Shown here one piece after another: positions 183 through 14,182 of a stretch of DNA of 17,388 bases. Below the pieces are notes generated by a model. It did no database searches. It saw only the letters and a program-made list of their open reading frames with translations, and had not been told where the DNA came from. Each line of letters begins with the position of its first letter. Positions within the stretch are counted from its first letter, which is position 1. The stretch is taken from NCBI GenBank assembly GCA_964593795.1, contig CAZQJC010000017.1:1-17388 (forward strand), in the 5' to 3' direction. Source of the DNA: an uncultured Myxococcales bacterium (GTDB lineage Bacteria; Myxococcota_A; Polyangia; JAHFDS01). Both the position numbers and the translations under genes were made by a program.

Positions 183-222
<40 letters not shown>

Positions 223-277: not shown

Positions 278-2095
278 TCAGCCGATGAGCGCTCTCACCT
301 TCGTCATGGTCTCGTCGCACGCCGAGCGCGCCGAGGCCTCGAGCGCTGCGCAGCGGGCGCGCATGTCGGCCACGTAGGCCGCGTCGTCGATCTGCCGCAG
401 GTTGATGAGGACGTTGAGCGCGCCGCCGACGACACCGGCGAGGCCCATCTGCGCGCCGACGCCCGCGTCCGAGGCGCTCGCCGGGTTGCCGAGCGCGGCG
501 GCGCTCCGGCACAGCTCGATCGCGCGCAGCGACGCCTCCGCCGTGCCGAACGGCACGCGCACCGCCTCCTTGAGCCCCGCCTGCATCGCCGCCTTGCGCG
601 CGGCCTGCTCCGCCGGCGTGGCCTTCGGCAGCCGCATCGCCGCCATGTAGCCCGCGAAGGCGTCCGTGTCGGCGTCGACCGCCACGAGGAGCGCGTCCTT
701 GATGCGCTGGCCCTCGTCGGCGAGGGCGCAGAGCTCCGCCTCCTTGGCCGCGTCCTTGGGCTTTCCGATGACGAGGTTCGCCACCATCGTGGCGAGCGCC
801 GCGCCGAGCGCGCCCGCGAGCGCCGCCACCGAGCCGCCGCCCGGCGCCGGCGAGTCGCGCGAGACCTCGTGCACGAGCTCGTCGGTGCGCTTCGACACGA
901 GCGCACCGGGCCTCGGGACGCCGATGACCTTGTCCGCGATGGAGAACGGCGCCACGTCGCCGAGGCCCATCGATTGCGCCGCCGTGCGCAGGAGGTCCTC
1001 GGCCGGGACGCCCGTCGAGCGGCCCTGCTGCGCGAGGTAGAAGCGGCCCGCGGCGCGCATCGCGCCAAAGGGAATCAGGCCGACCACCTCGCTGCCCGTC
1101 ACGACGAGCCCGCGCTCGGCGGCCAGGCGGCGCGCCTCCTCGAGCACGACGTGCGGAGGCGTCACGTTCCAGTCGGTGAGGTTGATCGAGATCTGCGCGC
1201 GGTCGTACTGCGGGACCTCCCAGCCGATCGCGCGACAGTGCGGGAACTTGCCTGGCTTGAGCGCCGACTGCCCCTCGAGCCGCGCGGGATCCTGGTCGTG
1301 CAGGCGCGCGAGCGCGCGGTAGTCGTAGCCGTGCGCGTGCTCGGTGTGCGCGAAGAGCTCGTCCGCGGTGCCGAAGGTCGCGTCGCAGCTCCCGCAGGAG
1401 AAGCGCCCCGGCGCCTGCTTGACGAGCTCGCCCTTGTAGTAGAAGGGGCGCGTGGCGCCGCGACGCGCCGAGCGGCCCTTCTCGCGCAGCTCGAACGCGA
1501 TGTCGGTCGCGTGGTCCTTGGCGCGCGAGTTGAGGTTCACGTTGTAGGCGATGAGGAACTCGCGGGCGCCGATGACCGTCGCGCCGCTCCTCGCGTTGTG
1601 CGTGGCGGGACCGAAGTCGGGGCGCCACGCGGGATCGGCGAGCTTGGCGGCCAGGCCCTCGTATTCGCCTCGGCGGATGTTTGCCAGGCTGCGCCGCTCC
1701 GGGGACGCTGCGGCCGCCTCGTAGAGGTAGACGGGGATCGCCAGCTCGTCGCCGACGCGCCGGCCGAGCTTGCGCGCGAGCGCGGCGCAGTCCTCCATCG
1801 TGACGCCCTCGACGGGGACGAAGGGGCACACGTCGGTCGCGCCCATGCGGGGGTGCGCGCCCGAGTGCCGCGCCATGTCGATGCGCTCGGCCGCCTTGGC
1901 GATGCCGCGGAAGGCCGCCTCGAGCACCGCCTCGGGCGTACCGAAGAACGTGACGACGACCCGGTTCGTGTCGGAGCCGGGGTCCACATCGCGCAGGTCG
2001 ATCCCGTCGACCGCGCGGATGGCCCCGCAGATGTCCTCGATGACGGCCTTGTCACGGCCCTCGGAGAAGTTCGGCACGCACTCGACGAGCTTCAT
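278..2095 (-). CDS. ftcD: Bifunctional glutamate formimidoyltransferase / formimidoyltetrahydrofolate cyclodeaminase (FTCD-like), 605 aa. It carries an insertion of about 80 aa with a C2H2-like motif.
   Basis: The true start is ATG at 2095, giving [15 protein letters not shown], the canonical formiminotransferase N-terminus. HPRMGATDVCPF and GEYE...DFGP follow. The C-terminal half has SPAPGGGSVAALAGALGAALATMV...DADTDAF...MRLPK, the cyclodeaminase signature. Stop is TGA at 278-280. The 871-aa ORF in the track continues upstream only as an out-of-frame shadow across alaX. Confidence 0.85.
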   Translation of the reverse strand: MKLVECVPNFSEGRDKAVIEDICGAIRAVDGIDLRDVDPGSDTNRVVVTFFGTPEAVLEAAFRGIAKAAERIDMARHSGAHPRMGATDVCPFVPVEGVTMEDCAALARKLGRRVGDELAIPVYLYEAAAASPERRSLANIRRGEYEGLAAKLADPAWRPDFGPATHNARSGATVIGAREFLIAYNVNLNSRAKDHATDIAFELREKGRSARRGATRPFYYKGELVKQAPGRFSCGSCDATFGTADELFAHTEHAHGYDYRALARLHDQDPARLEGQSALKPGKFPHCRAIGWEVPQYDRAQISINLTDWNVTPPHVVLEEARRLAAERGLVVTGSEVVGLIPFGAMRAAGRFYLAQQGRSTGVPAEDLLRTAAQSMGLGDVAPFSIADKVIGVPRPGALVSKRTDELVHEVSRDSPAPGGGSVAALAGALGAALATMVANLVIGKPKDAAKEAELCALADEGQRIKDALLVAVDADTDAFAGYMAAMRLPKATPAEQAARKAAMQAGLKEAVRVPFGTAEASLRAIELCRSAAALGNPASASDAGVGAQMGLAGVVGGALNVLINLRQIDDAAYVADMRARCAALEASARSACDETMTKVRALIG

Positions 2096-3276
2096 GGCGC
2101 GGGAAGATACCTCGCGACGGCTTCCCAGGGGGTCGCGGCGGGCAGGGTCACCTCGGCGCGATCGGGGCGGCCGCCGCCCTTGCCCCCGAGGGCCTGCGCG
2201 ATTGCGCGCGCGAGCGTCCCGCAGTCCGCGGTGGCGCCGGGGCCGCGGCCGAGCAGGACCCTGAGCGCGTCGCCGCCGCGCCCACCGAGCATGAACAGCA
2301 TGCCCGCGCGGCCCTCGAGCCGGCGCGCCACGACCCGCAGCGTCTCCACGTCGGCGCCGTCGATGCATTCGCATATGCGCATTCGTTCGGGATCCGCGAG
2401 CGCGGCCTCCGCCACGGCGTCCGCCACGCGCGCGCGCAGCAGGCCCGCCGCCTCGCGCGCCGCGCCGAGCTCCACGCGCAGCCGCTCGATCGCAGAGGGC
2501 ACGTCGCGCGGCCCGCAGGTCAGCGCGCGGGCGAGCCCCGCGAGCACCTCGGCGTCGCCCGACAGCGCAGCCCGGGCGCGGGGACCGGCCTCGAACGACA
2601 CGCGCCGCTTGCCCTTGTAGCGCTCGGTGCCGGTGACGCGCAAAAGGCCGATCTGCGCCGAGCGCGTGCAGTGCGTGCCGCCGCAGGGCGACAGATCGAA
2701 GTCGCCGATGCGCACCACCCGGATGCCGGCATCGACCTTGGGCGCCCGCCGCAGCCGCAACCCCGCGAGCACCTCGGGCGTCGGGAAGAACGCCTCGACC
2801 AGCACGTCGTCGTCGACGATCTCGTTGGCGAGCGCCTCGGCGCGGGCGACGAGCGCGTCGGGGACATCGTCGCGATCGAGGTCGATCGTGCACGCCGTCT
2901 CGCCGAGGCGAGACGACACCGTCGCCGCGCCCGCCGCCTCCACGAGCGCCGCCGACAGGAGGTGCTGCCCGGTGTGGAGCGCCATGTTCGCGCGCCGCCG
3001 CGGCCCGTCCACCGTGCCCGCGAGCCGCGCGCCCACGGCCGGCGGGGGCCCCTCCACGCGGTGGTGGATGACGCCTGCGTCGTCGATCTGCACGTCGAGC
3101 ACCGCCATGCCACCGAGCGTGCCGCGGTCCGCCGTCTGCCCGCCCGACTCGGGGTAGAGCGCGGTCGCGGCGAGGACCACCGACGCCCAGTCGCCGTACC
3201 GCCCGTGCGCGATCACCTCGGCCTCGAAGGCGCGCGCGAACGGGTCGTCCCAGTAGAGCTTGCGCGTCGCGGTCAT
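2092..3276 (-). CDS. alaX: AlaX-L type alanyl-tRNA editing protein (standalone AlaRS editing domain with a DHHA1-like C-terminus), 394 aa.
   Basis: Starts [21 protein letters not shown]. It has the zinc motifs HTGQHLL (HxxxH) and SPCGGTHC (CxxxH), plus a Gly-rich [10 protein letters not shown]-terminal domain. The stop TGA at 2092-2094 overlaps the ftcD ATG at 2093-2095 (ATGA). Confidence 0.8.
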
Positions 3277-3968
3277 GGCACGAGCCGGTAGCCCTGCCCG
3301 TATACGGTCAGGATGTGCCGGGGCTCCTTGTGGTTCTTCTCGATCTTGCGGCGCAGCTTCACGATGAAGTTGTCGACGGTGCGGTTGTTCGGTCCGGGTC
3401 GGTGGAGCCCCCAGATCTTCTCGAGGATCTCGTCCCTGGGCACGGGCTCGCCCTGCCGCTCGGCCAGGAGCTTGAGCAGCTCGTTCTCGTAGAAGGACAG
3501 CGCCTCGGTCTTGCGCGCCCGCGTCACGGTCTGCTTTCGCAGATCGATCGTCGCCTCCCCGATGCGCAGGACCTCCGTGAAGGTCGCGCTGCGCTCGAGG
3601 CGGCGGAAGATCGCGCCGATGCGCGCGAGGAGCTCGGCCACGGAGAAGGGCTTGGTCACGTAGTCGTCCGCGCCGACCTCGAACCCTCGCACCTTGTCGC
3701 TCTCCTGGCCACGCGCCGTCAGCATGACGATGGGCACGAGCGCGTTGTCGCGGCGGACCTCGGAGCACACCTGATAGCCGTTCATGTCGGGCAGCATGAG
3801 ATCGAGCAGGATGCAGTCCGGCTGCTCGCTCCGCGCGAGCGCGACCCCCTCCGCGCCGGTCGACGCCGACCGGACCTCGAAGCCCTCGAACCCGAGGGCG
3901 TCGCCGAGGCCCCGGACGATGTCCGGCTCATCCTCGATGAGGAGTAGCTTCTTCCGCGACGTAGACAT
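3273..3968 (-). CDS. OmpR/PhoB-family response regulator (receiver domain plus winged-helix DNA-binding domain), 231 aa.
   Basis: [18 protein letters not shown]...[12 protein letters not shown]...VTKPF is the receiver domain. The C-terminus reads ...[15 protein letters not shown]...[11 protein letters not shown], a winged helix. The preferred start is ATG at 3968, with GAGGAA 7 nt upstream. An in-frame GTG at 3986 is an alternative. The stop TGA at 3273-3275 overlaps the alaX ATG (ATGA). Confidence 0.85.
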
Positions 3969-5577
3969 GCTCGGTTTCCTCGTCACCCCTTAGCACGGGC
4001 AGGCGGATCGTGAACGTCGCTCCCTCGCCCGGCGTGCTGTCGATCTCGGCGGAGCCGCCGTGCGCCTCCGCGATGTGGAGCACGAGGGCGAGGCCGATGC
4101 CGCTGCCGCGCACCGGCTTGGTGCGCTGCGCCTTGCCCCGGTAGAAGCGCTCCCAGACCTTGTGCTGCTCGTCGTGCGAGATGCCCGGGCCGCGGTCGGC
4201 CACCGAGAGCAGGACATCCCCACCGGCGGCCGCCACGCGCACCGTGATGGCGGTGCCCTCGCCGTACTTGAGCGCATTCTCGAGGAGGTTGAGGAGCGCG
4301 AGGGTCAGGGCGTTCTCGTCCATGCGCACGCGTGGCAGGTCGTGCTCGATGTGCGTCTCGAGCGGCACCTTCTCGCGCTCGAGCCGGTGCCGGTAGAGGT
4401 CGAGCGCGCGCTCGACCACCTCGGAGACGTCCCCGGGCGCGAACTCGTAGGCGACCTTGCCGCGCTCGATGCGCGCGAAGTCGAGCACGTTGTCGATGAG
4501 GCGCGCGAGGCGATCGCTCTCGCGGGTGATGATCTCGGCGTACTCGGCGGTCTTCTCGCTCGACTTGACCTTGCCCATCGCGACGAGCTCCGCGAACATG
4601 CGGATGAGCGACAGCGGCGTCTTGAGCTCGTGCGAGACGTTCGCGATGAACTCGCTCTTCAAGGCATTGGCGCGGCGCTCCTTGCGCACGGCGAGGAGCA
4701 GCACGACGATGCCGACCGTCATGACGACGAGGCTCACCGAGACGGTCGTGATGTCGAGCAGGCTCCGGATGCGCGCGCGCTCGAGCAGGCCCTCGATGTC
4801 GCGCGGCGCCATCTGCACGCGCCACTGCCAGAGCGTGGTGGGGAAGTGGCGCTCGTAGAGATAGCCGCGCGCCGTCGCCGCGAGGTTGGCCTCGCCGAAG
4901 ATCAGCTTGCCCTGGTTCGACACCACGGCGAAGCGATGCGCGCGGCCGAGCTCGCGGAACTCGCTCGGCAGCACGTGGTCGAGCACGTAGTCCACCGACA
5001 CCTTGAGCACGATGTAGAAGTGGCGGCCGCTCGGTGACTGGCGGTGCGTGTACGAGATCAGGAACGACTCGCCGTCGAGGCGCTGGTGCCAGTGCATGTG
5101 CCCCGAGAGCGCCAGGCGATCGAGCTGCAGCTCCGGCAGGAGCTTGCCCTCGAGCTTGCTCCGGAACGTCTCGCGCTCGCGGCGCGTGCGGGCGCGAGAC
5201 GCGAACTTGAGGATGTTGGTCGGCGTGTCGAGCACGGCCACGGCCTCGACCACCTGCGAGGTGCGGACGTTCTCCTCCCAGCGCTTCTCGAAGCCCTCGA
5301 GGTGATCGAGATCGACGAGCTCGAAGAGCGTGTGATCGGCGACGAGGATGTCCTTCTCGACCGCGCGGATGACCTGGTCGGTGACGTCGCGGTTGGCGGC
5401 GACGACGCTCGCCTCGACCTGGCTCGCGAGGCCCTGCGCCGCGCGGTAGCTGTAGCGGCCGAGCAGGAGCGCGCTCGCGAAGATCGCGGCGATCGTGGCG
5501 CCGAACGCGAGCTGGCTCCAGCTCGGCCAGCGACGCGCGAGCCCGCGAGGGAGGCGGCGACGAAAGCCCTCGACCAC
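3928..5577 (-). CDS. Membrane sensor histidine kinase, 549 aa. Layout: TM1, a periplasmic domain of about 230 aa, TM2, then HisKA and HATPase_c.
   Basis: Hydrophobic segments [18 protein letters not shown] and [23 protein letters not shown]-box SHELKTPL, N-box [12 protein letters not shown], and G-boxes DRGPGI and [12 protein letters not shown] start at 5577, with an in-frame stop 3 codons upstream. The 3' end overlaps the response-regulator start by 41 nt. Confidence 0.8.
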
Positions 5578-5604
5578 GACCGGTCAATGTAGCAGGCTTC
5601 GGCG

Positions 5605-6903
5605 GTGCTTCACCCCGCGCCTGTCCGAATCCTGCGCGCCGGCGAGCCCGAGGCAGACGCCCGCATCGACGCCCTTTGCCGGCGCGGTGTGGCCGCCGAC
5701 GCCACGGTGGCCGACCGTGTCCGCGCCATCCTCGGCGACGTGCGAGCGCGCGGTGACGCCGCGGTGCGCGAGCTGACGCAGCGCTTCGAGGGGCGCGACC
5801 CGGCGCCGATCGAGCTCGCCCGGGCCGACGTCGCTGCGCTGGCCGCGCGCACCGCGCCGGCCGTGCGCGCCTCCCTCGAGCGGGCCGCCGCGCGCATCCG
5901 CGCGTTCCACGAGCGCCAGCGCGAGGCCGGCTTCGAGTACGCCGAGGGAGGCTGCCGGCTCGGCGTGCGCGTGACGCCGCTCGCACGCGTGGCCGTCTAC
6001 GCCCCGGGCGGCACGGCGCGCTACCCCTCGAGCGTGCTCATGACGGCGATCCCCGCGGTCGTCGCGGGCGTGCGTGAGATCGTGCTCCTGACGCCCGGGC
6101 CCGCGCCCGAGACGATGTGCGCGGCGGAGATCGCGGGCGTCCACCGCGTGATGCAGATCGGCGGCGCGCAGGCGATCGGCGCCGCGGCCTTCGGTACGGA
6201 ATCCGTACCACGGGTGGACAAGATCGTCGGACCCGGCAACGCGTACGTGGCCGAGGCCAAGCGCCAGGTCTTCGGCGACGTCGCCATCGATGCGGTGGCC
6301 GGGCCGAGCGAGGTGCTGCTCGTCGCGGACGACTCCGCGCGGGCGGACGTGCTCGCGGCGGACCTGCTCGCGCAGGCCGAGCACGGGGCCGACTCGTTCG
6401 CCGTCCTCGTGACGACCGACGCGGCGCTCGCCGAGGCCGTCCTGCGTGAGCTGTCCGCGCAGCTCGCCGAGCTGCCTCGCCGGGAGCTCGCCGCGCGGGC
6501 CCTCTCCGACCACGGCGCGCTCGTCGTCGTCCGCGACCTCGATGCCGCGCTCGCGCTGGCCGATCGCTTCGCGCCCGAGCACCTGGGTCTGCACGTGCGG
6601 GCCGCGGCCGCGGTGGCCGCGCGCCTTTCGAACGCGGGCGCCATCTTCGTCGGCGACCACAGCCCCGAGGCCGCGGGGGACTACCTCGCCGGCCCGAACC
6701 ACGTCCTGCCCACCGCGGGCACCGCGCGCTTCGCCTCGCCCCTCGGCGTGTGGGACTTCATCAAGCGGACGAGCCTCATCGAGTACGACGAGGCCACGCT
6801 CGCGGACCAGGCCGACGACATCACGCGGCTCGCGCGCGCCGAGGGCCTCGAGGCGCACGCCCGCTCGATTGAGATCCGCCGGCGAGGTAGAAAGGGAGCA
6901 TGA
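5605..6903 (+). CDS. hisD: Histidinol dehydrogenase, 432 aa.
   Basis: [61 protein letters not shown]...AEHGADS...APEHL...[13 protein letters not shown] aligns motif for motif with E. coli HisD. GTG start at 5605, only 27 bp from the divergent kinase start. Confidence 0.9.
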
Positions 6904-7487
6904 GCCAGGACGAAAAGCCCGGCGCCGAGGAGCCCAAGGGGTTCGTCGTGCGCGATCGCCGCTTCTGGAACCGCGAGGGCGACGAGGGCGCCTCGCCGAG
7001 CCAGCCGACCTACATCGAGCAGCTCCAGCAGGCGCTGCGCGACAAGGACGACAAGCTCCGCTCGGTCGCGGCGCGCGTGGCCGCCATCGAGAGCGAGTAC
7101 GACGAGGCCCGCGCCCGCATGCGCAAGGAGCTCGGCGTCGAGGTCGAGCGCGCGCGGCGCTCGCTGCTCTCCGAGCTGCTCGAGGTCGTGGACAACCTCG
7201 ACCGCTCGATCGGCGCCGCGCGCGGCTCCGAGCACTTCGACGCCCTGCGAAAGGGCATCGAGCTCGTGCGCGGCCAGTTCCTCGCGACACTCGGCAACCT
7301 TGGCGTGCAGCCGTTCGCCTCCGTGGGCGAGCCCTTCGATCCCTCACGCCACAGCGCCGCCTCCGCCGTGCCCGTCACCGACCACGCCCAGGACGGGCGC
7401 GTGATCGGCGTGATCAAGGAGGGCTACCGCATCGGGGAAGAGGTGCTGCGGCCGGCCACGGTGGCGGTGGGCAAGCTCTCGAGCTGA
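6900..7487 (+). CDS. grpE: Nucleotide exchange factor GrpE, 195 aa.
   Basis: Acidic N-terminal tail, then a coiled-coil region ...LQQALRDKDDKLRSVAARVAAIESEYDEARARMRKE...LLEVVDNLDRS..., then a C-terminal beta domain ...VQPFASVGEPFDPSRH.AASAVPV...VIGVIKEGYRIGEEVLRPATV. AAGGGAG sits 6 nt upstream. The ATG at 6900 overlaps the hisD TGA (ATGA). Confidence 0.85.
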   Translation: MSQDEKPGAEEPKGFVVRDRRFWNREGDEGASPSQPTYIEQLQQALRDKDDKLRSVAARVAAIESEYDEARARMRKELGVEVERARRSLLSELLEVVDNLDRSIGAARGSEHFDALRKGIELVRGQFLATLGNLGVQPFASVGEPFDPSRHSAASAVPVTDHAQDGRVIGVIKEGYRIGEEVLRPATVAVGKLSS

Positions 7488-9238: not shown

Positions 9239-10063
9239 ATGGGCCTTTCGGCGAACAACAAGAACTTGCTGCAGCGCCTCGGCACCGCCGCCGTGCTCGT
9301 CCCCGTGCTCATCGCGCTCATCGCGTGGCACGAGCCCCTCGGCTGGGCCGGCGTCGTCGCGTGGGCCGTGCTGACGGGCCTGCGCGAGTTCTTCACCATC
9401 GTCTCGGCGGACGCTCCCGGGCTCGTCGTGCCCGGCATGCTGGTCGGCGGAGGCCTCGCCGCCGGCATCTACTTCCTGCCCGGGCACGCGCTCTCGCTGC
9501 TCGGCGCCGTGCCGCTCCTCGCGTTCGCGTTCACGCTGGCGCGCCCCGGCGAGCTCCGCACCGCACCCGCGCGCGTGGGCCTCTTGGCCCTCGGCATCAC
9601 GTACGTCGCGGGCCTCTTGACGCCGCTCGCGCTCCTCAAGCGCGACACCGGCGACCGCGGCGCGCAGTGGATCTTCCTGCTCCTGACGATCGTGTGGTTC
9701 GCGGACACGACCGCCTACGCCTTCGGCCGCACGCTCGGCCGACACAAGCTCTACCCCGCGGTGAGCCCCGGCAAGACCGTCGAGGGCGCGCTCGGGGGCC
9801 TCGTCGGCAACGTGGGCGCGGTGGTGCTCGCCAAGCTCTGGTACATGCCCGAGCTGCCCTGGTCCGCGGCCGCGGCGCTCGCGCTCCCGGCGGGCGTCTT
9901 CGGCCAGGTCGGCGATCTCTGCGAGTCCCTCCTCAAGCGCGCCTACGGCGTCAAGGACTCGGGACGCCTCTTGCCCGGCCACGGCGGCATGCTCGATCGT
10001 GTGGACGCCCTCATGTTCGCCGCGCCGTACACCTACCTCTACGCGCGCTACCTCGTGGGATGA
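9239..10063 (+). CDS. cdsA: Phosphatidate cytidylyltransferase (CDP-diglyceride synthase), 274 aa, polytopic membrane protein.
   Basis: Multiple hydrophobic helices. The signature SPGKTVEGALGG (SPxKTxEG) and C-terminal PGHGGMLDRVDAL are present. GAGGGA lies 6 nt before the ATG at 9239. It directly follows uppS, a conserved uppS-cdsA pairing. Confidence 0.9.
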   Translation: MGLSANNKNLLQRLGTAAVLVPVLIALIAWHEPLGWAGVVAWAVLTGLREFFTIVSADAPGLVVPGMLVGGGLAAGIYFLPGHALSLLGAVPLLAFAFTLARPGELRTAPARVGLLALGITYVAGLLTPLALLKRDTGDRGAQWIFLLLTIVWFADTTAYAFGRTLGRHKLYPAVSPGKTVEGALGGLVGNVGAVVLAKLWYMPELPWSAAAALALPAGVFGQVGDLCESLLKRAYGVKDSGRLLPGHGGMLDRVDALMFAAPYTYLYARYLVG

Positions 10064-11043
10064 GCCGCAAAGCCCGCTCGACCGAGCTGCCCGCGGTCGA
10101 GTTCGACGGCGGCGTCCACCTGCCGGGCACGCTCCTCTGGTTCGACCCGGCGAGGCGCCGAGACCTCTGCTTCCTGTCGAGCGCGCTCTCGGACAGCCCG
10201 CGCAGCCACGGCCAGGTCGTCACCACCGCCGAGACCGCCACGCTCGTGGGGCTGCGGCCGGGCGAGGCCCTCATCGCGCGGACCGAGCGCCCCTTCGTGC
10301 TCGGCAAGCTCAAGCTCGAGCTCTTCGCCTCCGGCTTCGTCCTCGGCGGGGCGCAGGTCCGCGTCCAGCACGCGGGCGCGCGCGTGGTCTACGCCGGCTT
10401 CGTCAACCCCACGCCCCGGCCCGTGGCCGCGCCGCTCGTCCAGCCGGCCGCCGACGTGCTCGTCCTCGGCGCGCGCTATGGCGCGCCGCGCGACCGCTTC
10501 CCGCCGCGCCCAGCGCTGCTCGAGCGAGCCCGCGCGTTCGTCCGCGAGACGCTCTCGAGCGGACGCACGCCGGTCCTGCTCGCCCAGCCGCTCGGGACCG
10601 CGCAGGAGCTCGCCCTCGTCCTCGCCGACGAGGGCGTGCCGGTCGCGGCGAGCCTCCGCATCGCCGCCCTCGCGGAGGCGAGCCGCACCCTCGGCCTGCC
10701 GCTGCCGCAGATCCGCAAGTACCGCGGTCGCATCCGCCCCGGCGAAGCGCTGCTCTGGCCCGCCAATGGCCCGCTGCCCAAGGGCCTGTCCGCGCAGACG
10801 CGGACGCTCGTCTGCTCCGGTCGCGCGCTCGACCCCGACTTCGTTCGCAGGGCAGGCGCCGACGAGGGCCTCGCGCTCTCGAACCACGCGGACGCCGCGC
10901 AGCTCGCCGAGTACGTGGCCGCGTCGGGGGCCACGAAGGTGTACCTCTTCGGCCAGGCCGCCGAGCCGCTCGCCGCCGAGCTCCGCCGCGCCGGCCGCGA
11001 CGCGACCGCCTTCGGCTCGACCCGCCAGCTCGAGCTCTTCTGA
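10060..11043 (+). CDS. Conserved hypothetical protein, 327 aa, translationally coupled to cdsA. It may be a catalytically degenerate metallo-beta-lactamase / beta-CASP-like fold.
   Basis: The ATG at 10060-10062 overlaps the cdsA TGA (ATGA). It is in frame with the downstream part of track ORF 9325..11043; the upstream part of that ORF is a cdsA shadow. Codon usage matches the neighbours. LLWFDPARRRDLCFLSSALSD resembles the 'DxxR..hhh-HxHxDH' stretch of ligase-associated/beta-CASP MBL exonucleases, with every His replaced. The C-terminal LSNHADAAQLAEYVAASGATKVYLFGQAAE resembles beta-CASP motif C with the His lost. Confidence 0.6.
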   Translation: MSRKARSTELPAVEFDGGVHLPGTLLWFDPARRRDLCFLSSALSDSPRSHGQVVTTAETATLVGLRPGEALIARTERPFVLGKLKLELFASGFVLGGAQVRVQHAGARVVYAGFVNPTPRPVAAPLVQPAADVLVLGARYGAPRDRFPPRPALLERARAFVRETLSSGRTPVLLAQPLGTAQELALVLADEGVPVAASLRIAALAEASRTLGLPLPQIRKYRGRIRPGEALLWPANGPLPKGLSAQTRTLVCSGRALDPDFVRRAGADEGLALSNHADAAQLAEYVAASGATKVYLFGQAAEPLAAELRRAGRDATAFGSTRQLELF

Positions 11044-11071
11044 CCTCCCTCACCCCGATTTCGCTCCGGCC

Positions 11072-11114
11072 GTAGCCCGTAGCCCGTGGCCCCTGGCCCG
11101 TACGCGAGTATGAT
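11072..11114 (+). promoter_or_regulatory. Four tandem heptamers (GTAGCCC, GTAGCCC, GTGGCCC, CTGGCCC; 11072-11099) immediately upstream of a TATGAT -10-like hexamer (11109-11114), which sits 8 nt before the kinase-gene ATG.
   Basis: Read directly. No Shine-Dalgarno sequence precedes the ATG at 11123. The spacing fits a leaderless transcript whose -35 region is occupied by the repeat array. This is a candidate operator/promoter. Confidence 0.4.
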
Positions 11115-11122
11115 CGGCGCCG

Positions 11123-14100
11123 ATGCGCGTCTGTCGCAGCTGTCGCGCCGCGTGCCCCGAGGCGGCCAGGTTCTGCCTGACCTGCGGCGCCGAGCTGCCG
11201 TCCTGGTCCGGGGACGACGCCGAGCGCTTGCTCGGGCAGGTCATCGCCGGCAACTTCCGCATCGTCGAGTTCGTGGGCGAGGGCGCGATGGGCCGCGTCT
11301 ACCGCGCCGAGCAGCTCTCGCTCGGCAAGTCGGTCGCCGTCAAGCTCCTGCACCCACGCCTGCGCTCGGACGCGTCGTTCATCCGCCGCTTCGAGAACGA
11401 GGCGCGCGCCGCGAGTCGGCTCAACCACCCGAACTCCATCGCCGTCATCGACTTCGGCCTGCTGACCTCGGGCGAGCCGTTCATCGTGATGGAGTACATC
11501 CGCGGCCTCACGCTGCGGCAGGTCAACGACGAGTCCTTCCCGCTGCGACCCTCGCGCGTCGCCCACATCACCGCGCAGATCGCGGGCGCGGTCGGCGAGG
11601 CCCACGCGCTCGGCGTGTTGCACCGGGACCTCAAGCCCGACAACGTGATCGTGCAGCAGCTCCGGGACGGCCGCGACCACGTCAAGGTGGTGGACTTCGG
11701 CCTCGCGGCGCTCATGAAGTCGTCACCGCGTACGAGCTCGACGGGCCAGATCTGGGGCACCCCGCAATACCTCTCGCCCGAGCGCCTGCGTGGCGAGGTC
11801 GCGACGCCGCAGACAGACGTCTACGCCATCGGCGCGATGCTCTACGAGCTCCTGACCGGCGTGCCCCCGTACGACGGCGGGACCCCGCTCGAGGTCGTCT
11901 CCGCCACCCTCGCCGGGCCGCCTCCTCCACCGTCGGCCCGGCGCGCCGACCTGCGCATCCATCCGGCCCTGGAGGGCATCGCGCTGCGCTGCCTCGAGCG
12001 CGATCCGCAGGCCAGGCTCGGCTCGGCCAACGAGCTGCGCGAGCGCCTCGAGGCGTTCGTGGCCGTCCGCGCGACCGACCGCTCGATCGAGTGCCCGCGC
12101 TGCGGCAGCGAGAACCGAGGCCGCGCGCGCTTCTGCTCCGAGTGCGGCCTGCAGCTCGCGAGCGCCTCGACCGCCGACGAGGCCCTCTTCCGCGAGCAGC
12201 CGACGACGCTGACGCAGGCGAACCCTCTCATCCAGCTCGCGAGCCTGCAGAGCCAGCCCATCCCGCCGGCCGCGCCGCCCGTCCTCGTCGTCGAGCCGGC
12301 GCCGCTCGTCGGGCGCCGCCGCGAGCTGCAGCGCCTCGGGGAGTGGCTCGACGTGGAGCGCTCGAGCGCGTTCCTCGTGTCGGGCGAGCCCGGCATCGGC
12401 AAGTCGCGCCTGGCCGAGACCGCGATCGCCGAGGCGGTCGTGCGCGGCTACCGGACGCTCGTCACCCGGCCCGACCCCTCGCGCGCCGGCGATCCCTGGT
12501 ACCCGGTGATCGGCGTCTGCCGCGCGGTGCTCGCCCTGCCGGACGATGCCTCGAGCGGAGACCTGGTCGTGGCCGCCGAGCGCCTCGGCGTCGAGCGCGC
12601 AGATCTGCTCGGCCTCGGCGAGCTGCTCGAGCTCGGGGAGCCGACCGGCGAGCTCGAGCGCACCGTCCGCCTGCGCGAGCTCCGAACCGCGTTCCGCCGC
12701 ACCATCGAGGCCGTCGCGATGACGCAGCCGACGCTCCTGCTCGTCGAGGACGTCGATCGGTTCGACCGGCCGTCCCTGTCGGTCTTCGCGGAGCTCGCGG
12801 TCAAGCCGCCTGCGGGTTGCCTCAAGATCCTCGCCACCGCACGCGAGACCGACCCGGTCGGGGTGCCCGATCGCGTCGAGCGCATGCAGCTCACCCCGCT
12901 CGGCCCGAACGACATGGCGGCCCTCGGCGCCGCACTCGCCGAGCCCGCAGGGCTCGAGGTGGCCGCGCTCGAGCGCGCCTGCGCCGCCCTCACCCCGGGC
13001 TTGCCGCTCAGCGCCGAGCTCGTGCGCCTGCTCTGGGCGTCCGGCCGTCAGTCACTGCCGACCACCCTCGGCGAGCTCGTCTCGTCTCGCGTCACCTGGC
13101 TCGCTCCGGCGTCGCGACAGGTCCTGCAGGCCGCCGCCGCCATCGGGCTCGAGGCCCCCATCGACGTGCTCGCAGATCTCGCGTCCGACAAGGGCGCCTT
13201 CGAGGGCGTTCTCGGCTACCTCATGGACCAGGGCTGGCTCCTGCGTTCGGGTGGCCACGTGCGCTTCCACCACGACTTCGTCGAGGAGGTCGTCTATGCC
13301 ATGACTCCCCGCGCCGTCCTGCAGGAGCTCCACCGCTCCGTCGCCGAGGCGCTCGGCCGGCGCCGCGCCCCGGCGACGGCGATCGCGGCCCAGTGGTTCC
13401 GCGCGGGAGAGGCCGCGGGCGCAGCGCTCGAGGCGGCCGGGGATCGCTGCGGCCGCCGCTTCGACGACCACGCCGCGGCCGACTGGTACAAGCGCGCCTA
13501 CGCCGCGGTCGGCGATGACGCCGATCAGCGCGCGGCCCCGCGGGTCGCGCTCAAGCACGCGACCGCGCTGCGCTTCTGTGGCGAGGCCGTGAGCGCCGAA
13601 GCGGCTGCGCAGGGCGGACTCGTCCGTGCCGAGCACCTCGGCGACGTGATCGGCCTCCGCCGGCTGCTCGCGACCCTCGCCATCGACCGCGCCGCGCTCG
13701 ACGTGGCGCGCGCGGAGCTCGAGGCGGCCCTGCAGGCGGCGCGCGACGCGGGCGAGCCCGACGCCGAGGCGAGCCTCGAGACGGACCTCTCGGTCGTCCT
13801 CGCCTCCGAGAACCGCGTCGACGACGCCATCGAGCTCCTCGAGCGAGCGGTCGCCCGTCACCGCTCGAGCGGCACGCAGGCCCCGTGGCGCACCCTCGCG
13901 CGCCTCGGCGAGCTGTGCTGGTACTCCGACCGCACCGAGCGCGCCAGGGGCTACCTCGGCGAGGCCCTCGAGCTGGCCCGCGCGGCCGGCTCGGCGATCG
14001 GCGAGGCCCGTGTGCACGCCCTGCTCGCGGGCCTGCTGCAGCGCCTCGGCGACGCCTCGGCCGCGGAGTCGCATCGCACCGACGCGGTCGTCTCGCTGCG

Positions 14101-14182
14101 CGCCATCGGGGACCGGGCCGCCGCGCTGGAGATGGAGCTCGACGGCCTCACCGCGACGCAGCGCATCCCCGAAGCGCCTTAG
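11123..14182 (+). CDS. Multidomain Ser/Thr protein kinase, 1019 aa. Layout: N-terminal zinc ribbon, Hanks-type kinase domain, second zinc ribbon, STAND/AAA_16-like P-loop NTPase, then a C-terminal TPR-like helical repeat region.
   Basis: CRSCRAACPEAARFCLTCG and CPRCGSENRGRARFCSECG are paired CxxC ribbons. The kinase carries GEGAMGRVY, VAVKLL, HRDLKPDNV, DFGLA and GTPQYLSPE. Walker A is GEPGIGKSRL (aa 421-430) and Walker B is LLLVEDVDRFD. The C-terminal 350 aa are Ala/Leu/Arg-rich helical repeats. The first in-frame ATG is at 11123; stop TAG at 14180-14182. Confidence 0.85.
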   Translation: MRVCRSCRAACPEAARFCLTCGAELPSWSGDDAERLLGQVIAGNFRIVEFVGEGAMGRVYRAEQLSLGKSVAVKLLHPRLRSDASFIRRFENEARAASRLNHPNSIAVIDFGLLTSGEPFIVMEYIRGLTLRQVNDESFPLRPSRVAHITAQIAGAVGEAHALGVLHRDLKPDNVIVQQLRDGRDHVKVVDFGLAALMKSSPRTSSTGQIWGTPQYLSPERLRGEVATPQTDVYAIGAMLYELLTGVPPYDGGTPLEVVSATLAGPPPPPSARRADLRIHPALEGIALRCLERDPQARLGSANELRERLEAFVAVRATDRSIECPRCGSENRGRARFCSECGLQLASASTADEALFREQPTTLTQANPLIQLASLQSQPIPPAAPPVLVVEPAPLVGRRRELQRLGEWLDVERSSAFLVSGEPGIGKSRLAETAIAEAVVRGYRTLVTRPDPSRAGDPWYPVIGVCRAVLALPDDASSGDLVVAAERLGVERADLLGLGELLELGEPTGELERTVRLRELRTAFRRTIEAVAMTQPTLLLVEDVDRFDRPSLSVFAELAVKPPAGCLKILATARETDPVGVPDRVERMQLTPLGPNDMAALGAALAEPAGLEVAALERACAALTPGLPLSAELVRLLWASGRQSLPTTLGELVSSRVTWLAPASRQVLQAAAAIGLEAPIDVLADLASDKGAFEGVLGYLMDQGWLLRSGGHVRFHHDFVEEVVYAMTPRAVLQELHRSVAEALGRRRAPATAIAAQWFRAGEAAGAALEAAGDRCGRRFDDHAAADWYKRAYAAVGDDADQRAAPRVALKHATALRFCGEAVSAEAAAQGGLVRAEHLGDVIGLRRLLATLAIDRAALDVARAELEAALQAARDAGEPDAEASLETDLSVVLASENRVDDAIELLERAVARHRSSGTQAPWRTLARLGELCWYSDRTERARGYLGEALELARAAGSAIGEARVHALLAGLLQRLGDASAAESHRTDAVVSLRAIGDRAAALEMELDGLTATQRIPEAP

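Follow-up and report, generated by a model that had tools for sequence, protein, structure and literature searches.

The window, a stretch of 17,388 nucleotides of DNA from an uncultured Myxococcales bacterium, encodes an FtcD enzyme with a surface arm that is probably a β-hairpin onto which a C2H2 module was grafted, serving as an architectural, zinc-stabilised cap and not as a reader of nucleic acids. By sequence comparison, this putative finger-bearing form is the standard FtcD of a large clade with members in about 10 phyla. FtcD (FTCD) is a textbook channelling enzyme, and the solved structures we know of are exclusively mammalian and without the finger element. Searches of the searchable literature for formiminotransferase or formimidoyltransferase together with zinc finger or C2H2 returned no description of a zinc finger in FtcD, and a predicted eukaryote-style C2H2 finger on the arm of a bacterial FtcD appears to be previously undescribed.

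FtcD and its insert

The translated ftcD gene was matched to the Pfam models FTCD_N, FTCD, and FTCD_C in the expected order, with E-values of 2e-73, 1e-43, and 4e-57 and scores of 246, 149, and 193 bits against gathering cutoffs of 27, 24, and 24.5, respectively (Table 1). The NCBIfam equivalog model TIGR02024 scored 336.8 bits (cutoff 221.25), its match falling into two stretches with the insert between them. Mammalian FTCD (rat, 1tt9 and 2pfd; formimidoyltransferase domain of pig, 1qd1) shows the same order of the three Pfam domains, and the protein is 38% identical to the rat enzyme, which was recovered in a sequence search with an E-value of 2.5e-115 (1tt9). The full-length AlphaFold2 (AF2) model, with an overall pLDDT of 94, was matched by Foldseek to 1tt9_A with an E-value of 1e-45 and a TM-score of 0.89 normalised to the target. 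In an alignment of 60 sequences (58–92% identity), H81, the counterpart of the HPRMGA His in the pig and rat proteins, was invariant, and the H81-P-R-M-G and SPAPGGGS motifs were conserved. Both activities are predicted from these conserved motifs, suggesting a normal, catalytically intact bifunctional enzyme. The start of ftcD is overlapped in the window by an AlaX-like gene, which none of the 80 compared genomic loci has.

The insert lies between the landmarks ELREKGR (aa 202–208), which ends a helix, and AIGWEV (aa 289–294), which forms a strand. As originally predicted, it is situated within the formimidoyltransferase domain, and more precisely in its C-terminal subdomain, where both the PF02971 match and the alignment to rat FTCD are interrupted; the coordinates proposed for gene and insert were likewise correct when checked against the landmarks and the ligand codons. 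The PF02971 match spans aa 180–391 yet covers only 143 profile positions, residues 210–279 are unmatched in rat FTCD, where residue 209 joins residue 212, and the HMMER alignments to 1tt9 and 1qd1 both split at aa 209/280. The insert had been estimated at about 80 extra residues; 80 residues do lie between the landmarks, but mammals have 12 there, which leaves a net gain of about 68. These roughly 68 residues are missing from every solved structure, 1tt9 and 1qd1 included, and from both curated models, TIGR02024 among them. The reading frame of the insert runs unbroken into the Pfam domains on either side.

Table 1. Positions of ftcD, its enzyme domains, and the parts of the insert in the window
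Feature	Position in window	Strand	Assignment and basis
ftcD gene	278..2095	minus	Bifunctional glutamate formimidoyltransferase / formimidoyl-THF cyclodeaminase, intact, 605 aa; coordinates include the stop codon
Formimidoyltransferase N-terminal subdomain (aa 3–178)	1562..2089	minus	Pfam PF07837 over aa 3–178
Formimidoyltransferase C-terminal subdomain (aa 180–391), broken by the insert	923..1558	minus	Pfam PF02971
Cyclodeaminase domain (aa 405–583)	347..883	minus	Pfam PF04961, 3.9e-57; matches 7vg4 and 1o5h
Whole insert (aa 209–288), ELREKGR to AIGWEV	1232..1471	minus	Landmarks, 1tt9 alignment, hairpin alignment
N-terminal limb of the β-ribbon arm (aa 209–230), basic	1406..1471	minus	Counterpart, by alignment, of strand 1 in the ~22-aa hairpin of ~560-aa FtcDs
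C2H2-type ββα finger (aa 231–255)	1331..1405	minus	Ligands C234, C237, H250, H255
Second helix and loop of the module (aa 256–275)	1271..1330	minus	Helix 259–265; G-Y-D, L262, D269-P270, and G275 conserved
C-terminal limb of the β-ribbon arm (aa 276–288)	1232..1270	minus	Counterpart, by alignment, of return strand 'xVxIPGxLKxVK' in short-hairpin FtcDs

The predicted finger and its candidate zinc ligands

In the AF2 model, the insert forms a two-stranded β-ribbon arm whose tip consists of a ββα finger and a second helix. The limbs of the ribbon hold several of the best conserved positions of the insert in the 60-sequence alignment: R211, Y219, and G222 in the N-terminal limb are invariant or nearly so, and the C-terminal limb has an invariant G282 and a nearly invariant F284 and C287. 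At the tip, the motif FSCGSCDATFGTADELFAHTEHAH (aa 232–255, window positions 1331–1402) carries the four candidate ligands, whose codons were read in the DNA at positions 1394–1396 (C234), 1385–1387 (C237), 1346–1348 (H250), and 1331–1333 (H255). Their spacing, C234-x2-C237-x12-H250-x4-H255, fits the pattern C-x2-4-C-x12-H-x3-5-H. The ββα fold that the original prediction called for was present in the model, with strands at 231–233 and 240–241 and a helix at 244–255; the insert had a pLDDT of 93–97 in the full-length model and a mean of 87 when folded alone. Solved classical C2H2 fingers (CTCF, ZFAT, and SALL3) superpose on the predicted finger at 0.6–1.4 Å. The AlphaFold model carries no metal; the finger would bind one structural Zn(II) through C234, C237, H250, and H255.

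Conservation of the Cys and His residues among orthologues bearing the insert had been named as the other point on which the finding would stand or fall, and it was borne out. All four ligands were kept in 120 of the 120 closest database homologues (116 with x12 and 4 with x14 spacing) and in 25 of 26 genomic loci with the insert, and C234, G235, C237, H250, and H255 were invariant in the 60-sequence alignment; the second Cys is replaced by Asp or Glu in L009, P0130, and P0247. The C2H2 spacing of the motif is classical, as described, but the Phe at Cys+4 that completes the exact consensus occurs only here and in a few relatives: PROSITE PS00028, which has a hydrophobic residue at that position, fits the protein itself, 12 of its 120 close homologues, and 1 of 120 sequences of the L016-type clade. 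The conserved aromatic of the family sits instead at Cys+2 (F239, 42 of 60 sequences). All Pfam scores for C2H2 models were below gathering, the highest being 22.5 bits for zf-C2H2_ZN142 (cutoff 27) and 17.1 bits for zf-C2H2 (cutoff 25.2). Across 51 family members, every Pfam match was to the C2H2 clan (best E-value 1.2e-5), and an exhaustive search with a profile of the insert retrieved thousands of multi-finger proteins through positions ~18–50. The short length of the pattern and these sub-threshold scores are what could be said for a fortuitous CCHH in a poorly conserved or mistranslated linker. The pattern is expected only 2e-4 times per protein from composition and was seen in 37 of 200,000 shuffles of the sequence, the ligands are invariant in over 140 sequences that represent about 10 phyla, the fold is predicted with confidence, and the frame is continuous with Pfam domains on both sides. 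Given the low expectation, the conservation of the ligands, and the predicted fold, we consider a chance motif or artefact refuted, its probability being negligible.

Distribution and evolution of the module

The insert had been described as unusual; it is indeed absent from mammalian FTCD, but it is not peculiar to one protein, as it was found in 26 of 80 genomic loci from about 10 phyla. These loci belong to Myxococcota, Acidobacteriota, Calditrichota, Ignavibacteriota, Gemmatimonadota, Planctomycetota, Neomarinimicrobiota, and WOR-3, to one gammaproteobacterium, and to a Thermoplasmatota archaeon. Cultivable bacteria with an orthologue include Geothrix and Caldithrix abyssi. FtcDs of ~560 aa from Bacteroidota, Aminicenantes, Cloacimonadota, Spirochaetota, and others share the enzyme and a basic β-hairpin arm at the same position ('GRVKREGNPITGKIVKDxxGNxVxIPG'). 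In these proteins the hairpin closes in a tight 'GN' turn, whereas the FtcD of the window has a 48-aa finger-plus-helix module in its place. Because the ~560-aa FtcDs have the bare β-hairpin only, the finger can be described as a module of ~48 aa grafted at the tip of the hairpin. Both states occur within Neomarinimicrobiota, with the module in L022 and L027 and none in L026, L041, and L047. Tandem repeats of finger plus helix are found in P0122. A sister clade of Gemmatimonadota/KSB1 type has a module of the same length. Of 120 sequences there, about half read CCHY or D-S-[YFH]-Y at the ligand positions, the C, C, H, H of the main clade being replaced by D, S, Y/F, Y; P0311 is a D-S-Y-Y member.

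A stepwise origin may be proposed from these states, although gain and loss were inferred from an NJ tree and are correspondingly crude. In the C-terminal subdomain of the transferase, a surface loop would first have been extended into a β-hairpin arm of ~22 residues, the end state in the ~560-aa FtcDs, and an autonomous module of ~48 residues, comprising a classical-type ββα Cys2His2 finger and, after it, a short helix, may then have been added at the hairpin tip. The natural series would thus run from loop to hairpin, zinc finger, Cys-Asp-His2 site, and zinc-free finger, and would allow one to study how enzymes gain small metal-stabilised domains that later become independent of the metal.

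The module shares the ligand spacing and the predicted ββα fold with the classical C2H2 finger (Pfam clan C2H2-zf, PS00028). It differs from that finger in being single, located inside an enzyme domain, acidic rather than basic, and aromatic at Cys+2, in the conserved extra helix with G-Y-D...L...D-P that follows, and in its sub-threshold Pfam scores. Ros/MucR domains also contain bacterial Cys2His2 sites, and some of them have Cys-Asp-His2 ligands or need no zinc to fold (PMC9779718). The FtcD family has both Cys-Asp-His2 and ligand-free members as well. Membership in the Ros/MucR family was nevertheless rejected on the basis of spacing (in Ros/MucR, C-x2-C-x9-H-x3-4-H in a ~58-aa βββαα DNA-binding domain) and of fold rank. 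Adenylate kinase offers a further comparison: the Gram-positive enzyme has a Cys4 zinc 'lid', and that of E. coli a zinc-free, hydrogen-bonded lid. Like the FtcD arm, this lid is a small metal-stabilised excursion whose ligands became polar or aromatic in some lineages while the excursion was kept, but it is a zinc ribbon or knuckle, whereas the FtcD finger is ββα.

Role of the finger

Nucleic-acid binding, with autoregulation or moonlighting, had been suggested for the finger, which would then act on the enzyme's own mRNA or promoter or on other RNA or DNA; we regard this as highly improbable. The classical spacing and predicted fold would suit such a role, as would the basic limb, with a mean net charge of about +3.5 over the 24 residues ahead of the finger; some single fingers with basic flanks bind DNA, an example being GAGA factor, which was among the Foldseek matches to the finger. 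Against this, the core of the finger is acidic, with a net charge that averages −2.5 and ranges from −7 to +1, and the contact positions −1/+2/+3/+6 of the helix are mostly Thr/Glu/Glu/Ala-Asp (Thr at aa 243, position −1, in 34 of 60 sequences), so that neither charge nor contact positions correspond to the basic or polar recognition helix of DNA-binding fingers. The finger is also single, without a TGEKP-type linker, and no part of the protein varies more than its surface: the non-ligand residues of the finger show 28% identity, compared with 60–79% in the catalytic domains. Moreover, the basic limb is common to finger-less FtcDs, the module persists in members of the sister clade that lack the ligands, and no gene neighbourhood or regulatory context was found to be conserved, with 10 loci inspected for neighbours. 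The designation 'C2H2' should accordingly be read with caution, as it need not mean nucleic-acid binding.

The acidic core, the variable surface, and the existence of ligand-free versions of the module favour a structural role over one in recognition. By exclusion, and with moderate confidence, we infer that the finger most likely caps an architectural arm as a structural element stabilised by zinc. Zn(II) would serve only to keep the tiny domain folded, and the finger may aid in subunit packing or, placed close to the folate/polyglutamate path of the oligomer, serve as a lid or guide.

A docking function, in which the finger recruits a partner such as a histidine-utilisation or folate enzyme or provides a required contact with a neighbouring subunit, is possible but unlikely. 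The C2H2 fingers of EEA1, which binds Rab5, and of PRMT3 are known to bind proteins and provide models for this, and the strict length of the module and the persistent acidity of its helix may point to a specific interaction partner. A surface with such low identity argues against a universally conserved external partner, and no co-occurring neighbour or conserved partner gene was found near ZnF-type ftcD in 10 inspected loci. Docking is likewise not favoured by the residues specific to the ZnF clade outside the insert, which are few and mostly either neighbour the insert along the chain or lie dispersed over the cyclodeaminase (CD) domain; these residues carry no evidential weight of their own, as they are confounded by phylogeny.

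Zinc occupancy or oxidation of the Cys2His2 site could alternatively tune the stability or activity of FtcD and tie histidine catabolism to oxidative stress or zinc status. In favour of such a switch, histidine buffers zinc in the cell, a labile Cys2His2 site lies on an enzyme of histidine breakdown, and the main clade conserves its ligands strictly. About half of the sister clade has nonetheless replaced all the ligands and kept the module, so that the metal cannot be essential to the module's role, and the gene context gives no sign of zinc regulation; being otherwise purely speculative, this explanation is very unlikely.

It is rather doubtful, though conceivable, that the FtcD module represents an ancient bacterial lineage of the classical finger, perhaps also with a specific enzymatic function such as gating or guiding polyglutamylated folate between the active sites or coupling stability to zinc. 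If it did, the family would bear on the origin of eukaryote-type fingers, which has so far been debated mainly around Ros/MucR. Practical impact would be modest unless a specific function emerges; the natural swap between the finger and the 'GN' turn provides a clean handle on the effect of the arm on oligomerisation or folate channelling.

FtcD and the position of its insert

The window (G+C, 72%) encodes an intact bifunctional FtcD. All three of its Pfam domains scored far over threshold, the protein passed the NCBIfam equivalog for glutamate formimidoyltransferase, rat FTCD (PDB 1tt9) was matched with an E-value of 2.5e-115, and the body of the predicted AlphaFold2 model was superimposed on the rat enzyme with a TM score of 0.89. 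Translation, the codons in the DNA, and the alignment with rat FTCD bore out the original prediction as to the coordinates of the insert and its C2H2 motif. The proposed excess of ~80 residues over mammalian enzymes amounts to a net gain of only ~68, since in mammals these landmarks are already 12 residues apart. In the rat alignment, residues 210–279 were unpaired, with rat 209 continuing at 212, and the Pfam FTCD match used 212 query residues for 143 profile positions. The motif is not a chance occurrence: CxxC-x12-H-x3-5-H is expected 2e-4 times per protein of this composition and was seen in 37 of 200,000 shuffles.

Features of the window and of FtcD
Feature	Window position	Strand	FtcD residues	Remarks
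ftcD	278-2095	minus		605 codons
FTCD_N			3-178	Pfam
FTCD			180-391	Pfam
ELREKGR			202-208	landmark
FSCGSCDATFGTADELFAHTEHAH	1331-1402	minus	232-255	ligand codons legible directly in the DNA
AIGWEV			289-294	landmark
FTCD_C			405-583	Pfam
ORF with (ST)n run	84-377	plus		run spurious
(ACGAGC) x 6.7	183-222			perfect hexanucleotide tandem repeat
ATGA overlap	2092-2095	minus		ftcD start, AlaX-like gene stop
AlaX-like editing protein gene	2092-3291	minus		tRNA_SAD; upstream of ftcD
OmpR-type response regulator, HisKA/HATPase sensor kinase	3276-5577	minus		two-component pair
hisD	5605-6900	plus		histidinol dehydrogenase
Ser/Thr protein kinase gene	11123-14179	plus		1019 aa
grpE				neighbour of ftcD

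Predicted fold and evolutionary setting of the module

AlphaFold2, run on the query with a 60-sequence alignment, gave a model (mean pLDDT, 94; pTM, 0.87; insert pLDDT, 93–97) in which strands at residues 231–233 and 240–241 precede a helix bearing both His (244–255) and a second helix (259–265). The same elements appeared when residues 209–288 were folded alone (pLDDT, 87 overall and 91–95 in the core), and the anticipated beta-beta-alpha finger was thus found in both predictions. The insert was not present in any solved structure when the query was compared with PDB sequences. From the predicted fold and the ligand spacing, we conclude that the finger is of the classical beta-beta-alpha Cys2His2 type, with zinc binding predicted. 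The query insert and 51 homologous inserts matched C2H2-clan families only, all under gathering scores, which leaves the insert outside formal Pfam C2H2 membership. A search of 1.84 billion representatives with the insert profile matched 3,193 proteins; the 150 matches listed were mostly poly-finger proteins, each matched 6–26 times at profile positions ~18–50. Two proteins from the representative search, P0122 (856 aa) and P0121 (965 aa), have 10–12 tandem units consisting of a C2H2 finger, then a helix, with a D/N-P loop (sample unit, YHCGHCGFRSRDEDKVRDHWVEKHGMAADEAARVMTAQNPDLSLD). As these units match the FtcD module past the finger proper (profile positions 14–58), a wider family of such finger-and-helix modules may exist.

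The best 120 database homologues (58–100% identity, all 605–622 aa), with named sources in Myxococcota, Acidobacteriota (Geothrix, Holophagaceae), Calditrichota, and Bdellovibrionales, all kept the four ligands, spaced by x12 in 116 cases and x14 in 4. In the 60-sequence alignment, C234, G235, C237, H250, and H255 were invariant and Y257, D258, L262, G275, and F284 nearly so; the expected conservation of the Cys and His residues among insert-bearing orthologues therefore holds in this main clade. Judged by its homologues, the insert is not private to the query: when genomes were scanned at one per species, 80 ftcD loci were found, 26 of which carry it (Thermoanaerobaculia, Holophagae, Myxococcales, Calditrichota, Ignavibacteriota, Gemmatimonadota, Planctomycetota, Steroidobacteraceae, WOR-3, Neomarinimicrobiota, and one Thermoplasmatota archaeon). 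Bacteria are the suggested source, by transfer, of the finger-type FtcD in the archaeal metagenome-assembled genome (locus L020, positions 5536-7377 and 9943-11592). A gene ~2.5 kb from that ftcD has an N-terminus that resembles, by eye only, urocanate hydratase (HutU).

The remaining 54 loci (Bacteroidota, Aminicenantes, Cloacimonadota, Spirochaetota, and others) encode FtcDs of ~560 aa with a ~22-residue hairpin, GRVKREGNPITGKIVKDxxGNxVxIPG, at the insert position. In the 80-locus alignment, the two hairpin limbs align with query residues of about 209–230 and 276–288, and ~48 residues including the finger stand in place of the GN turn, marking the finger as a separate module set on the end of an arm that predates it. 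A crude neighbor-joining tree with the insert masked, on which we put little weight, placed most finger-bearing FtcDs in one clade. Neomarinimicrobiota formed a separate clade with both states, the module being present in L022 and L027 and absent from L026, L041, and L047; these closely related FtcDs share an unusual limb, RIPNPLSxNLLDGKI, which suggests that the 48-aa module was gained or lost cleanly as a unit at the hairpin tip.

Ligand loss and the role of the module

With the Gemmatimonadota member L016 as query, a homologue search retrieved 120 proteins (602–635 aa) whose insert is full-length; only 42–50 of them kept CCHH at the ligand positions, 8 had CCHY, and ~60 had D-S-[Y/F/H]-Y (for example, ...YPDGNSDFVAGSFEELAEYYRKQYGGDL...). 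In this Gemmatimonadota/KSB1-type clade, the ligands have been lost stepwise, from CCHH through CCHY to D-S-[Y/F/H]-Y, with insert length kept. Ligand replacement was noted in the L016-type set P0288-P0389 (such as P0311 and P0318) and in L009, P0130, P0247, P0177, and P0204; in L009, P0130, and P0247 the second Cys is replaced by Asp or Glu. Such Cys-Asp/Glu-His2 and ligand-free variants have parallels among Ros/MucR proteins, for which both Cys-Asp-His2 spheres and folding independent of zinc have been documented (PMC9779718). The module is a finger and helix grafted onto an ancient hairpin arm, with invariant ligands, a confidently predicted beta-beta-alpha fold, an acidic variable surface, and ligand-free derivatives. 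Because a sister clade keeps it without zinc ligands, its role, whatever its nature, is possible without metal, which favours shape or packing and argues against zinc or redox sensing as the general function.

The original prediction also envisaged a nucleic-acid-binding finger, possibly autoregulatory. Fingers that read DNA do so with basic or polar side chains at -1, +2, +3, and +6 of the helix; these positions correspond to FtcD residues 243, 245, 246, and 249, where Thr, Glu/Asp, Glu/Ala, and Ala/Asp/Glu, respectively, predominate. Averaged over 144 sequences, the net charge of the finger core is -2.5, and there is one finger only, with no inter-finger linker. The preceding limb is basic (+3.5), but finger-less FtcDs share it, so this charge does not belong to the finger itself. 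With the ligands and G235 excluded, pairwise identity of finger residues is only 28%, against 60–79% in the catalytic domains, a pattern that marks a scaffold with a freely drifting surface and not a conserved recognition surface. Taken together, these features indicate that the finger probably does not bind nucleic acids. The gene context gave no sign of regulation either; the window neighbours are not conserved at related loci. There is no evidence of a new function for the finger.

FTCD is a homo-octamer built through interfaces between formimidoyltransferase domains and between cyclodeaminase domains. One structural Zn(II) per subunit would steady the tip of the arm, and the arm may be an architectural part of the oligomer or of the surroundings of the folate/polyglutamate path. 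We infer this architectural role. In the literature searched, no FtcD was described as containing a zinc finger, and finger-bearing proteins are named simply glutamate formimidoyltransferase in their sources. Enzyme and mini-domain are each of a known kind, and their combination appears to be new. Its interest lies in evolution and structure: a finger of eukaryotic style is widespread among bacteria, and one enzyme shows a natural progression whose steps are loop, hairpin, zinc finger, and zinc-free finger.

Other features of the window

The ATGA overlap suggests translational coupling of the AlaX-like gene and ftcD. None of the 80 related loci has the AlaX-like gene, not even the 91%-identical Myxococcales locus L002; there, an OmpR-type response regulator lies directly upstream of ftcD. 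The hexanucleotide repeat lies a short way past the ftcD stop codon, in the spacer on its 3' side, and gives rise to the spurious (ST)n run. A distance of 3.5 kb separates hisD, of histidine biosynthesis, from ftcD, of histidine catabolism, and the two-component pair between them is on the same strand as ftcD. The Ser/Thr kinase is a fusion protein that also contains a zinc ribbon, AAA_16 ATPase domain, and TPR repeats, an architecture typical of Myxococcota signalling proteins.
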